DNA of 64,000 nucleotides. Source: Octopus vulgaris (Eukaryota). Positions 1 to 63,965 of this stretch are shown here, piece after piece. The stretch is from NCBI GenBank assembly GCA_951406725.2, contig OX597823.1, positions 106,392,001-106,456,000 on the forward strand, in the 5' to 3' direction. The position numbers and the translations under genes were made by a program. Numbering within the stretch: position 1 is the first letter of the stretch; every line of letters begins with the position of its first letter. The notes below the pieces were generated by a model. That model ran no database searches and was not told where the DNA came from. It saw only the letters and a list, made by a program, of their open reading frames with translations.

Positions 1-540
1 GGTGGATTTTAGTGTGCCAACGCACGAAACTCTCTGGCTTTGAGTCACTGTTACTGCAGCTAAATATTATTATTAGCACACACAATCATATACATATATG
101 TATCTGAATATACATGCATACACACGCGCGCGTGCGCGCACACACACACACACACACATATATGGAACAAAAACGCAATAGAGGACATTAAAACGTTCGG
201 ACAGAAACACGACACAAAGGCGGACAAGAGAAGCAGCAATTAGGACAGGCTAAAAAGACGGGTCATTCTTGGCTTTCTTTCTTCAGTCAAGTACCAGAAG
301 TCACGACCATTTCGGACAGTTACACTTGAGATGGTTCGATCTGGTTGTCCCCATATATATATATAACAAATTTACTTAGACCCTGTAGGAAATAAATAAA
401 TGTATATAACCCATTATTTCTGTATATAATATATATATCTGTCTGTCTGTCTGTCTGTCTGTCTCTCTCTCTCTCTCTCTCTCTCTTATATATATATATA
501 TATATATATATATATATATATATATATATATATATATATT

Positions 541-1480
541 TGAGAAAGAGGGAAAAACCTCCTCGTCGAACCAAAACTTTCAGATAGGAACCGTCGGACT
601 CTTACACTAATTCTTAGAAAAGATCACAAAAGTACAGATCCCCAAATTACTGCAGAGCTTAATGACCACCTCGAGAACCCAATTTCCAAAAAAATAAACT
701 TTCGCTGGGAGCTGCACAAAGCCGGATTTCACGGGTGGGATGCAATCAGAAAACCACTACTTTCAAGGACAAACATTGCAAAACGTTTATGGTGGAGTAA
801 AAAACTAGAGAATTGGCCCCTAGAGCAGTGGAAGAATGTTATTTTCTAGAACGAGTCATCCTATACCTTTTTTCCGACAACGGCCGAGTATACGTGTGGA
901 AACAGCCAAAGAAAGCATTCGACGCAGACTGCCTTCTTACAATTGTTAAACATGGAGGCGGATCTGTGACGATTGGGGGTGGGGGCTATACCTTGGAAAT
1001 CGGCCGGGCCAATGGTTTCCCTTCATGGTAGAATTAGTAGTCAAGACTATTTAAGCCTATTATGTGATCAAATGCATCCTATGTTTGTGGAACTGTTTCC
1101 GGAGAGAAACGCAATCTTTCAGGATGATAATGCACCAATTCACACAGCTAAAGTTACTGAATGGCACGAGGAACATTCTAGCGAAGTTGAATACCTTATC
1201 TGGCCACCGCAGTCCCCAGATTTCAGTATTATTGAACATTTATGGTGCATTTTAGAAAAAGAAGTCAGGAATCGATATCCCCAACCATCATCACTAAAAG
1301 AACTGGAGATTGTTTTAACTGAAGAATGGACAAAAATTCCTTTGGAAACAATTCAAACTTTGTACGAGTCCATATCTCGTAGAATTCAAGTTTTAATTAC
1401 TGCCAAAGGCGGTCCTACTCCATATTAAAATAAATTTGTTTGAAATTTTAAAGTGTTTCCATTATTTTGTCCAACCTATG
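541..1480 (+). mobile_element. Tc1-like DNA transposon relic, 5'-truncated and frameshifted transposase
   Basis: Translates in pieces to HTH-region ITAELNDHLENP..ELHKAGFHG..IRKPLL, then KHGGGSV, FQDDNAPIH, WPPQSPDFSIIEHLW and AKGGPTPY* (ORF 973-1428). It ends in a TIR-like ...ttttgtccaacctatg followed by TA. Confidence 0.92.
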
Positions 1481-2219
1481 TATATATATATATATACATA
1501 ACGACATATATAGTATTTACATATATGTGTATAAATATATATGCATGTATGCACCTATCTATCTACCTAGCTATACATATGGATATACATATGGACACAC
1601 ACACATACGCACACATACACACGCACACATACACACATACACACAGCTTAGTCACTTAACTTCTAAGCATATAAATACCTACGAATCTGCACACAGAGCA
1701 AGCAAATATAAGCGTGTGTTTTTGCCTGTGTCTCTCTCTCGGTTTCTCTTTCACTCTATCAATATGTATTTATATACATAAATTTGTGTATATTACATAT
1801 TTCCCCACTTACAAAAAGAAATATGTCTAAGTAGTTTACACCGACTGTATCCTTGCATATAATGAGCCAATGCTTTGATGTCGCTGCTTAACGCAAAGAG
1901 TTTATGACGTCGTAATTATCAGTGATTAGCTGTTGTAGGATTCAACCTTTGCCATATATTATGATGAATTGTGCTGCGCACTAGCAATGACAACTGAACT
2001 TATCCTAAACATTTCTTGATAAAAAAACTTGGGACGAGAATATTTTGCTGACATACATATGTGTGCGTATGTGTGTATACATACATACATACATACATAC
2101 ATACATACATATATATATATATATATATATATATATATATATATATATATAAAACATATGCATATATACATACATATATGTACGTACATACCTCTACATG
2201 TATATATACATGCATATAT

Positions 2220-2535
2220 GGGTACAGGACACCAAAAAAAAACGTCGAACACAATGAGAAACGAAAACATAAACACAAAACCAAGGAACTGGACATTTTT
2301 CTTAAACAACGAAAAAATAGAGTACAGGACAAATAAAACAAGGACAATTCCCCTTCTTCAGTCGCCATCTACTCTGCGTTTCGAAGGTGAAGGCGATACG
2401 CATCTTCGATAGAAACTTTCTTTCCCGCGAAAAGCAAATTAAATAAAATTTGAGATCTTTTTGCGGAGGGGTAAGAATGGTAACAAAAACAGGACAGTAA
2501 AAGACAGGACAAGGAGAATAAAGATTGTTCTTGAT
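2220..2535 (-). repeat. (TA)n/(CA)n-embedded short dispersed element, possibly a Penelope pLTR derivative
   Basis: Homologous to 35685-35880 (shared CGAAACG..GAGTAGA..ACTGAAGAAGGGGAAT..TCC and T-rich tail). Flanked by microsatellites. Confidence 0.55.
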
Positions 2536-2574
2536 ACACACACACACACACACACACATATATATATATATATA

Positions 2575-3065
2575 TAAAGATAAATTAAATAGAGAGATAT
2601 TATTGACACTCCAATAATTTATTTATATTACAATATTACATGATATACTATGAATATAAGACAACATATTATTATATAACAAACAATTATTTAAAAAAAG
2701 CATAAAAGGCCAACAAATTGTTTCGACTTATATACATTTTCTGATATACATACAAAATAACAGTTCCCTTATATATAAGTCACTTCAAGATCATGGTTTA
2801 AAGAAAGATGAAATTCCTCGTAGAAGGGCGGCTGGATTGTAAAAGTTAATTCAAATGTCTATGTATTATGAGCGTGAGCGTTAACCATTCAATCATGCAT
2901 CAATTACAATTAAAAAAACAACAAAAACACTCTAACGGACGATACAACCAAGTATGTGCAATCCACAACCATCGAAATTCACTTCATTACATCTCAAACA
3001 CACACCAATCGAAACCCTTTCATATCCAAGATAGTCCCTTGTCACCACAACATACAACAATAAGA
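2575..3065 (-). mobile_element. (TA)n-flanked non-coding insert with hammerhead-like relic (putative Penelope pLTR fragment)
   Basis: Minus strand 2790-2711 reads CTTGAAGT-gacttata...tataagtc-GAAACAATTTGTT. (TA)n lies on both sides. Confidence 0.45.
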
Positions 3066-62250: not shown

Positions 62251-62657
62251 TTTGTTTATTTGTTTGTTTGTTTGTTGAGCGAAGCGGTCTTCGTCCCAGA
62301 GCTCGCAAGATCGCGCCTCTGTAGTGGGAGAAGTCTGAAACGTGGTCCTTTGCTATTTGTAAGACCCGCAGAAGAGAAAGCAGGTCAACCCCCGACACCG
62401 GCAGCATCGACGGATGGATGAATGGGCATCCAGGCTCAGCGGTTGCGTAGGAAGTCGGGGACAAGAAACAGGAAGAAAGAGTGAGAGAAAGTTGGAGCGA
62501 AAGAGCACAACAGGGGTCGTCACCACCCCCTGCCGGAGCCGAGTAGAGCTTTAGGTGTTTTCGCTCAATAAACACACACAACGCCCGGTCTGGAAATCGA
62601 AACCGCGATCCTTCGACCGCGAGTTTGCTGCCCTAACCACTGGGCCATTGCGCCTCC
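62251..62657 (-). mobile_element. SINE family C, long-tail variant 2 with (AAAC)n tail
   Basis: Same head and body as 53947-54313 up to cttcctgtttct, then unrelated 3' sequence. Confidence 0.9.
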
Positions 62658-63269
62658 TCGTTGTTGCTGTTGCTACTGTTGTTACCCTTTTGTTTTAGTT
62701 GCTATTGCTATCATTGTAGATGCTATTACTACTGCTGCTACCATTATTGTTATTGCTAATGGTTTTAACATTGTTGTTGTTGTTGCTATTATAATTGCTG
62801 TTGCTAACGGTTTTGCTATTGTTGGTTTTTCTGTTCCTCTTCCACTGGTTGCTATTATTATCGTTGTTGCTGTTCTTACTACTGCTGTTGCCATTGTTGC
62901 TGTTCCAATTGTTACAGTTGTTATTGCTGTTGTTGCTAATGCTATTGCAATTGCTATTTTTATTCTTCAATTATTTGTTAACTTACTTTCTTTTTATTTA
63001 TGAGTGTAGTTAGTTACATCTCAGCATGTTTCTCTCTTTTTGTTGCTGTTGATGATGATAATGATGTTGTTCTTGGTGTAGTTGATGTTGCTGTCGTAAT
63101 TCTGACCTGTTTGTTAATTTACGTATTTGCATAGTGTACAAGTATGATTGTATACACACACACAGACACAGACACACAGGACATATATATATATATATAT
63201 ATATATATATATATATATATATATATATTTAAAAAGGGAGATGTGGAACACGAGTTGTGATATATAAAA

Positions 63270-63612
63270 AAAGGAAATGAAAAAAATGCTGACAAAATAA
63301 TTAAAGTAAGGGAGAGTGTATTTAATTAGGTGAAAGTTATTTTTACCGGTTGCGCATTTGTTATGCTTATCAAAAGATATTTTTTAAAGAGAGATAGAGT
63401 TCCTTTCTGATAGATTTTTTTCTCTTATCTGATAAGAGAAAAAATACAGATACAGATAAGAGTAAAAAATCTATCAGAAAGGAACTCTATCTCTCTTTAA
63501 AAATATCTTTTGATAAGCATAACAAATGCGCAACCGTAAAAAGAACTTTCACCTAATTAAATACACTCTCCCTTACTTAAATTATTTTGTCAGCATTTTC
63601 TTCATTTCCTTT
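63270..63612. repeat. Near-perfect palindrome of about 340 bp between (TA)n tracts
   Basis: Arms 63270-63431 and 63453-63612 are reverse complements with few mismatches. Confidence 0.95.
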
Positions 63613-63782
63613 ATATATATATATATATATATATATATATATATATATATATATATATATATATATATATATATATATATATATACACACACACACACAC
63701 ACACACACACATATATATATATATATATATATATATATATATATATATATAAGAGAACAAGATGTACGTTACGCCGCAATAA

Positions 63783-63965
63783 TATATGTATAAAAAATAT
63801 ATATAAAAATACAAAATGGGACAAGAACGCAAAACACTCAAAGAGACGACACAAAAAACGGACGGGTCGGCTTCGAATGACCCATCTGGTTTTTGTATCG
63901 TCTCTTTGAGTGTTTTGCGTTCTTGTCCCATTTTGTATTTTTATATATATTTTTTATTCATATAT
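63783..63965. repeat. Near-perfect palindrome of about 180 bp
   Basis: Arms 63783-63868 and 63879-63965 with a 10-nt loop ggcttcgaat. The arm sequence belongs to the 28411 family. Confidence 0.95.

Follow-up and report, generated by a model that had tools for sequence, protein, structure and literature searches.

The stretch of Octopus vulgaris DNA considered here, contig OX597823.1 of GenBank assembly GCA_951406725.2 from position 106,392,001 to 106,456,000 (64,000 nucleotides, nt; the whole of this 64-kb stretch is called the window), is microsatellite-rich animal DNA in which short non-coding inserts sit in TA tracts and carry motifs resembling the hammerhead ribozyme. The locus raises the question of what these inserts are: an uncatalogued, retrozyme-like system mobilised by a neighbouring Penelope element, as was originally predicted, or remains of something already known. 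The evidence comes from the window, 138 related Penelope-like element (PLE) loci, one set of sequencing runs, and papers. Most of the inserts are probably the 3' ends (pseudo-long terminal repeats, pseudo-LTRs) of many PLE families. They were likely left where a GIY-YIG endonuclease had cut AT-rich or (TA)n DNA and reverse transcription then remained incomplete; the motifs are probably their minimal ribozymes, mostly decayed. Overall, this is for the most part a known kind of system, to which one abundant family with a variant ribozyme core is added.

Anatomy of the inserts and the Penelope copy

In the related PLE loci the end of the open reading frame (ORF) is followed by an untranslated region (UTR) of 109-591 nt, then by a minimal hammerhead on the sense strand and by a T-rich tail, and (TA)n is reached within 20-119 nt in 6 of the 11 loci tabulated. 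The inserts of the window have the same anatomy, i.e., motif, T-rich tail and (TA)n follow each other on one strand. Behind the T-rich tails a TA tract lies 12-202 nt downstream, on the motif strand, of 10 of the 13 motif arms, as compared with 24% of background positions (p about 1e-4 in a binomial test, a value inflated because the sites of the original prediction had been selected as TA-embedded). Three inserts, 63229-63611, 10101-10590 and 63752-63960, are inverted pairs extended on one arm only, the copies of one family share a 3' end and are staggered at the 5' end, and a PLE ORF lies ahead of one relic. An inverted 5'-truncated copy and an optional one-sided tail of 30-40 base pairs (bp) are signatures of PLEs (PMC8557442; PMC11167929), and such a tail arises from two reverse-transcription start sites (PMC11167929). 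The left arm carries about 43 nt of extra tail in 63229-63611 and an extension of about 85 nt in 10101-10590, as against the 30-40 bp norm (PMC8557442). The features on which the argument draws are as follows.

36126-36354, plus strand: TA-flanked insert of about 230 nt from a very abundant family, with a 5' part of about 80 nt, a minimal hammerhead and a T-rich tail
36203-36237, plus strand: minimal type I hammerhead with a variant (U4C) core, the best preserved site (covariance model, descriptor, run contigs)
10631-10951, minus strand: TA-flanked insert, likely a PLE 3' end, 143 nt from site to TA
10770-10843, minus strand: hammerhead-like motif inside the preceding insert (descriptor, motif-to-TA layout)
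57319-58750, minus strand: 5'-truncated, dead PLE with TA on both sides, comprising reverse transcriptase (RT) thumb, CxxxxCxxC linker, GIY-YIG endonuclease, 3' UTR and tail
63229-63611, both strands: two 3' ends in inverted arrangement, 92% alike, with a U3-A8 hammerhead-like relic reading GCAA in each arm
10101-10590, both strands: two 3' ends in inverted arrangement that are 72% alike and contain hammerhead-like relics
63752-63960, both strands: inverted pair of a further family, with shared 3' end, staggered 5' ends, one-arm tail and a non-canonical motif
2577-3064, minus strand: TA-flanked insert with a relic at 2711-2790
38689-38770, minus strand: TA-flanked 80-nt insert, its motif at 38708-38735 reduced to the 3' half
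50116-50187, minus strand: insert of about 70 nt ending at the 5' core of a hammerhead, then T-rich tail and TA
55667-55700, plus strand: decayed hammerhead-like motif with a U4C core (descriptor, layout)
12-50, plus strand: cited relic, not supported as a hammerhead (site reading, descriptor)
24070-24110, plus strand: cited relic, not supported as a hammerhead (site reading, descriptor)

The 12 cited sites were examined one by one on both strands. The original prediction of hammerhead motifs in TA-embedded inserts stands in so far as such motifs are present and most arms are near TA; it does not hold for 12-50 and 24070-24110, and a canonical core with stems I and II intact is found at none of the 12 sites, nor is a canonical core with a stem I of at least 3 bp. 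A near-canonical core with both stems occurs at 36203-36237 and 10770-10843 only, and none of the other 10 sites has both stems paired. The former has a stem I of 4 bp, the core CCGACGA, in which C replaces U at position 4 (U4C), a stem II of 4 bp and GAAACGTC, and it combines paired stems I and II with a bulge after A9 and the G10.1-C11.1 pair. The latter (minus strand) has a stem I of 4 bp, the core TTGATGA with a U3.G8 wobble, a stem II of 5 bp with a long loop 2, an additional A ahead of GAAA, a palindromic stem III and a GUC site. These are two of the four sites that had been put forward as the clearest; the other two are less well preserved, as at 55667-55700 (plus strand) the core CCGACGA and GAAACGTA are present yet stem I is unpaired and stem II damaged, and at 50154-50187 (minus strand) the core TCGACGA abuts TA, so that the 5' strand of stem I is absent. 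On the minus strand at 57515-57551 a stem I of 5 bp is kept, the first core bases are absent and GAGA replaces GAAA, while at 63341-63375 (minus strand) and in its inverted twin a U3-A8 core is present, with GCAA instead of GAAA. CTGAAGA and GAAA are present with a poor stem I at 10255-10348 (minus strand), and a stem II of 10 bp and GAAA occur with a broken 5' core at 2711-2790 (minus strand). Stem III is palindromic at 36203, 10770, 55667, 57515, 63341 and 10505 and nearly so at 50154 and 2711. The otherwise unrelated motifs at 10770-10843 and 57515-57551 have an identical 6-nt stem III palindrome, which could permit mixed dimers, and in three unrelated inserts core positions 4 and 7 are both C (36207 and 55670 on the plus strand, 50187 on the minus strand).

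In a masked BLAST self-comparison of the window the 12 sites have no similarity to one another, their own inverted arms excepted, and therefore about ten families are involved. The predicted unrelatedness of the inserts is thereby confirmed, and the prediction of several distinct families with PLE origin, TA association and 5' truncation as an option is supported. Shorter relatives include a solo copy of the 10101-10590 family at 28671-28741 and a 29-nt copy at 61356-61384 with the same end as the 38689-38770 insert. For O. vulgaris 30 recently active Penelope families are listed (PMC13282606).

A direct location in the sense-strand 3' pseudo-LTR of a PLE is found for the relic at 57515-57551 only, the other motifs being assigned by anatomy. 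This relic lies in the 3' UTR of the PLE at 57319-58750, at a position matching related PLE loci, and is followed by 202 nt of T-rich tail and then TA. The Penelope copy with RT and GIY-YIG domains that had been predicted here is real and TA-flanked, but it is 5'-truncated and broken. It aligns to residues 427-770 of a relative of 772 amino acids (P0002), begins just past the RT YxDD motif and is without residues 1 to about 426, the RT catalytic motif included, and an in-frame stop is found at 58065-58067, with CxxxxCxxC directly before it. The protein is 53-58% identical to full-length RT/GIY-YIG proteins, a relative named from Octopus bimaculoides shares 57% over half of the query, and the Pfam GIY-YIG match (E 9e-4) is under the curated cut-off. 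A linker of the form CX2-5CxxC marks Neptune/Nematis-type PLEs and has been suggested as mediator of microsatellite bias (PMC8557442). The copy is a dead insertion that itself exemplifies 5' truncation, and not the helper that was proposed. No PLE relative was found among viral contigs, and no RNA run is among those listed as containing the Penelope stretch.

The family of 63752-63960 has solo copies on the plus strand at 28409-28549, 43417-43549 and 41174-41237 and a distant relative at 160-352 (minus strand). Its order of elements is conserved and non-canonical, i.e., GAAA, about 25-30 nt, CTGAAGA, a short stem and GAAT, and no single hammerhead fold, whether of type I, II or III, suits all copies. 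A second family of this kind, with GAAACG ... CTGAAGA ... GAAT and a T-rich tail, is found at 2220-2530 (minus strand) and 35659-35882 (plus strand), 75% alike over 159 nt. Type II and III readings of the two families, made by eye and by folding, were rejected as stem I was inconsistent.

The abundant 36126-36354 family

The family-level test on sequencing runs covers one family, that of the insert at 36126-36354, in which the motif lies 118 nt from TA and the tail is 54% T. When contigs of four runs were placed on this insert at 80% likeness, 11,895, 7,514, 16,939 and 2,973 contigs were obtained (7,514-16,939 per genomic run); depth in these placements does not equal copy number. Core positions 3, 5-9 and 12-16 have no alternative letter at 10% in the four runs, i.e., the core is conserved in the family, and 36216 reads A in 98-99.8% of depth, so that stem II is fully Watson-Crick in the family. 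A lack of core conservation, which would have counted as refutation of the original prediction, is thus not seen in this family. The base at the cleavage site varies and is T, C or A. At core position 4 (36208) the four runs agree, with C making up 85-87% of depth and T 13-15%, and because C is the majority in each of them U4C is a trait of the family and not decay of one copy. The predicted recurrence of variant cores is in this respect correct, while the other variants in the window are indistinguishable from single-copy decay. The T minority may represent a canonical subfamily or CpG decay; at four other CpG sites in the motif variants are under 10%. The stems are conserved without compensatory pairs, one change keeping a G.U pair and one breaking a pair, and covariation is seen only in the outside PLE reference set, itself selected by a pairing descriptor.

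What is new here is a very abundant family whose core is conserved and in which U4C accounts for about 85% of depth. U4C occurs in none of 33 distinct motifs from related PLE loci and in none of the 56 motifs of supplementary Fig. S3 of PMC4209133, which are all U4 and include no cephalopods; the motif at 36203-36237 is closely like an Acropora Neptune motif of the same figure. U4C is a natural viroid variant with much lower activity in vitro (PMC3088659), and the change is predicted to weaken self-cleavage in the octopus family as well. No report of U4C in PLEs or other retroelements was found in the literature consulted, though Repbase, Dfam, subscription journals and supplements not seen may hold such a family, and no report of octopus PLE hammerheads was found either, with these same sources lying outside the scope.

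Some families, and chiefly this one, could instead be dedicated, fixed-length non-autonomous PLE derivatives resembling short interspersed elements (SINEs), which are transcribed and then copied in trans by TA-targeting PLE enzymes, in which the attenuated U4C hammerhead is kept as a structural or recognition element. We regard this as unlikely, yet as the most serious alternative. It would account for thousands of contigs at 90-99% likeness, for a U4C majority in four of four runs and for the absence of U4C from the 33 motifs of PLE loci, and non-autonomous PLE derivatives are known (MRC1; PMC8557442). It would also be in line with the weak TA-like start of one loose-end consensus and with the observation that only 60-86 of the 7,514-16,939 contigs per genomic run extend past either end of 36126-36354. 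The window copy is, however, diverged across its first 40 nt or so, and the fall in depth and the few contigs running over therefore say little on where the family ends. Three long contigs moreover depart from the insert at different 5' places (36128, 36158 and 36188), the loose ends of another run give a different upstream sequence for the family, and other families in the window bear the hallmarks of truncation. Such a derivative can exist in one family while truncated PLE 3' ends make up the others.

A more elaborate proposal, which we consider improbable as a whole, is that the family is a high-copy non-autonomous Penelope pseudo-LTR derivative of about 230 nt with U4C fixed in its master, that three or more unrelated families (36207, 55670 and 50187) each acquired U4C together with C7, and that among short elements borrowing TA-targeting Penelope enzymes a ribozyme that is muted or gated by protein is favoured.

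Chance level, contrary evidence and a possible mechanism

The frequency of the motif was assessed with a relaxed hammerhead descriptor on the window and on 100 dinucleotide shuffles that preserve microsatellites (poly-A runs were not kept). When stem I is not required 46 sites are found as compared with 29 +/- 6 in shuffled sequence, and no shuffle reaches 46. The excess over shuffled sequence is less clear once paired stems are required: a stem I of 3 bp leaves 4 sites vs 2.4 (18 of 100 shuffles reach 4), stems I and II of at least 4 bp each leave 2 vs 0.49, and a canonical core with a stem I of at least 3 bp gives 0 vs 0.34. The sequence pattern by itself is therefore weak evidence. A strict descriptor gave 3 sites vs 0.25 shuffled (maximum 2 in 60 shuffles) and was set aside, as two of the three sites look spurious.

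A covariance model trained on 31 hammerheads from PLE loci elsewhere, and therefore independent of the window, ranks 36201-36239 at the top (15.4 bits, E 0.24), and no other match has an E below 1. Of 19 loci searched with held-out PLE motifs, 13 had a motif visible by eye, and the same model scores 9 of these at 15-27 bits. It penalises a long loop 2, and its misses at 10770, 2711 and 10255 are therefore no disproof. An Rfam scan of the whole window gave no hammerhead among the best 150 of 551 matches, which are mostly microsatellite or microRNA matches, and a scan of 10100-10950 gave none.

That most of the motifs arose as random matches, in DNA rich in A, T and repeats, would agree with the 29 sites per shuffled window, with the remaining model matches at E above 1 and with the Rfam matches listed. 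It is nevertheless very unlikely, since core and stem II are conserved at the family level at 36203-36237, since the placement and orientation of the motifs follow those of tail and TA, and since one relic lies behind a PLE ORF (57515-57551). For 12-50 and 24070-24110 chance is a fair reading.

Other findings weigh against an origin of the inserts as PLE 3' ends. The count of two-stem motifs is not clearly over chance (8 of 100 shuffles reach it), and the covariance model finds 1 of the 12 sites near significance. Two sites, 12-50 and 24070-24110, are without the order of motif, tail and TA, having no usable core plus stem I and no downstream TA within 270 nt, and at 55667-55700 the downstream flank is (CT)n, with the closest TA tract 1,457 nt off. 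A tblastn search of the window with 56 PLE proteins found coding sequence at 57726-58766 only, and no short insert was linked to an autonomous ORF of its own. Within the 36126-36354 family run X1 has, in 21% of depth, a substitution at 36235 that disrupts one pair of stem I, with no compensation listed, and the loose-end consensus of one run starts TA-like near the 5' boundary of the window copy (agreement 0.5), a weak hint of a fixed 5' end over random truncation.

If the inserts are PLE 3' ends, their formation can be envisaged as follows, although the source, targeting and activity of the enzymes are matters that we infer. Intact elements at other loci of the genome, and not the dead copy at 57319-58750, would supply a PLE protein that nicks AT-rich or TA DNA. 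Reverse transcription would begin in or near the tail and frequently halt early, and an inverted second copy would sometimes be added during insertion. The hammerhead, 50-200 nt from the 3' end, would be carried in nearly every fragment and would decay afterwards; with a start near the tail it falls within the first 100-200 nt copied, which may explain why it survives in the shortest insertions. Cleavage, if it takes place, would depend on dimer formation or on the PLE protein, and insertion can probably do without it. Minimal PLE hammerheads can cleave as dimers (PMC4209133), and hammerhead mutants are unaffected in insertion in vitro (PMC11167929). Since cleavage is probably not needed for insertion, a U4C lineage could amplify. 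As no coding sequence remains in the short inserts, it is likewise by inference that they are linked to any specific autonomous parent.

The window contains further repeats. An abundant SINE-like family of about 400 nt, often split by an internal microsatellite, is found at 27187-27604, 31087-31515, 33969-34391, 43000-43394, 55090-55434 and other places, and a second abundant family at 4521-4696, 17818-18048, 30849-31015 and 44433-44666. An AT-rich repeat family, 82% alike between 3094-3369 and 19221-19524, adjoins TA tracts, with no clear hammerhead seen in it. There is also an imperfect palindrome of 306 nt (70%) at 47978-48283, a 110-nt tandem repeat without a hammerhead core at 25532-25897, an RT fragment of the long interspersed element (LINE) type at 45144-46241 (minus strand, Pfam RVT_1) and a Tc1/mariner DDE fragment at 970-1425 (plus strand, Pfam DDE_3).

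Comparison with known systems

Non-LTR retrozymes (PMC7229834; 10.64898/2026.07.22.740005) are, like the window inserts, short, non-coding and PLE-related with a type I hammerhead, but they form tandem units with mostly canonical, efficient hammerheads and circular RNAs, whereas the window inserts are solitary or inverted with minimal and damaged cores. That the inserts are retrozymes, i.e., tandem monomers freed by efficient type I hammerheads, circularised and reinserted, could draw on the type I topology, on the presence of retrozymes in molluscs (PMC7229834) and on the argument that retrozymes derive from PLE pseudo-LTRs (10.64898/2026.07.22.740005), yet it is the least probable of the alternatives and the retrozyme-like part of the original prediction is not retained, since no head-to-tail tandem of motif-bearing inserts is found within the window, pairs being inverted, no canonical core with stems is present, and copies finish in a PLE-type tail past the cleavage site and not at it. 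Nor is the system uncatalogued in kind, as minimal hammerheads that are solitary, heterogeneous and fall into families have been described in their thousands for single animal genomes (Cervera and De la Pena, 2014; PMC4209133); most lie apart from full PLEs, and they include opposite-strand pairs and a U3-A8 variant. Many families, opposite-strand pairs and TA bias are already published (PMC4209133; PMC8557442). No statement on TA targeting was found in PMC12602865. In the giant squid genome 235 Rfam hammerhead-1 loci are reported (PMC6962438).

For repeat annotation this means that inserts of this type, filed as unknown repeats or SINEs, are probably PLE ends, and descriptors fixed on CUGANGA would overlook the U4C family. 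That a U4C family exists at very high copy with the rest of the core and stem II kept offers a naturally occurring case in which to test whether conservation concerns the fold or the cleavage, and the idea that hammerheads merely parasitise PLEs has been raised (PMC8557442). Among the related loci one PLE hammerhead (L037:1862-1893) has core and stems I and III intact and 3 nt in place of stem II. Hammerhead-bearing Penelope elements of animal type occur in many records of bacterial metagenome-assembled genomes or symbionts (L085-L138), where they probably represent binned host DNA, and some proteins have been named as bacterial GIY-YIG nucleases (P0035, P0042).

MRC1 of Chlamydomonas (PMC8557442) resembles the window inserts in having a short PLE-type 3' end and in that it would move in trans; canonical hammerheads are undetected in most Chlamys elements (PMC8557442), and non-autonomy of the window inserts is a candidate property. 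The endonuclease-bearing (EN+) PLEs of the Neptune/Nematis type (Craig et al., 2021; PMC8557442) share with the copy at 57319-58750 an RT followed by a C-terminal GIY-YIG domain and the CX2-5CxxC linker, and with the window (TA)n bias, 5' truncation, the inverted truncated copy and the one-sided tail; unlike them the copy is truncated and broken, and by its linker it is likened to Neptune and Nematis jointly. The closest likeness in the ribozyme itself is to the minimal hammerheads of metazoan PLEs (PMC4209133), which have the same type I topology, bulged base after A9, G10.1-C11.1 pair, stem III of 1-2 bp or palindromic, short stem I and AU-rich flanks, and which are likewise mostly solitary, with many families per genome, opposite-strand pairs and U3-A8 variants. 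The window differs from these in that its copies are decayed and in that one very abundant family has a U4C majority.

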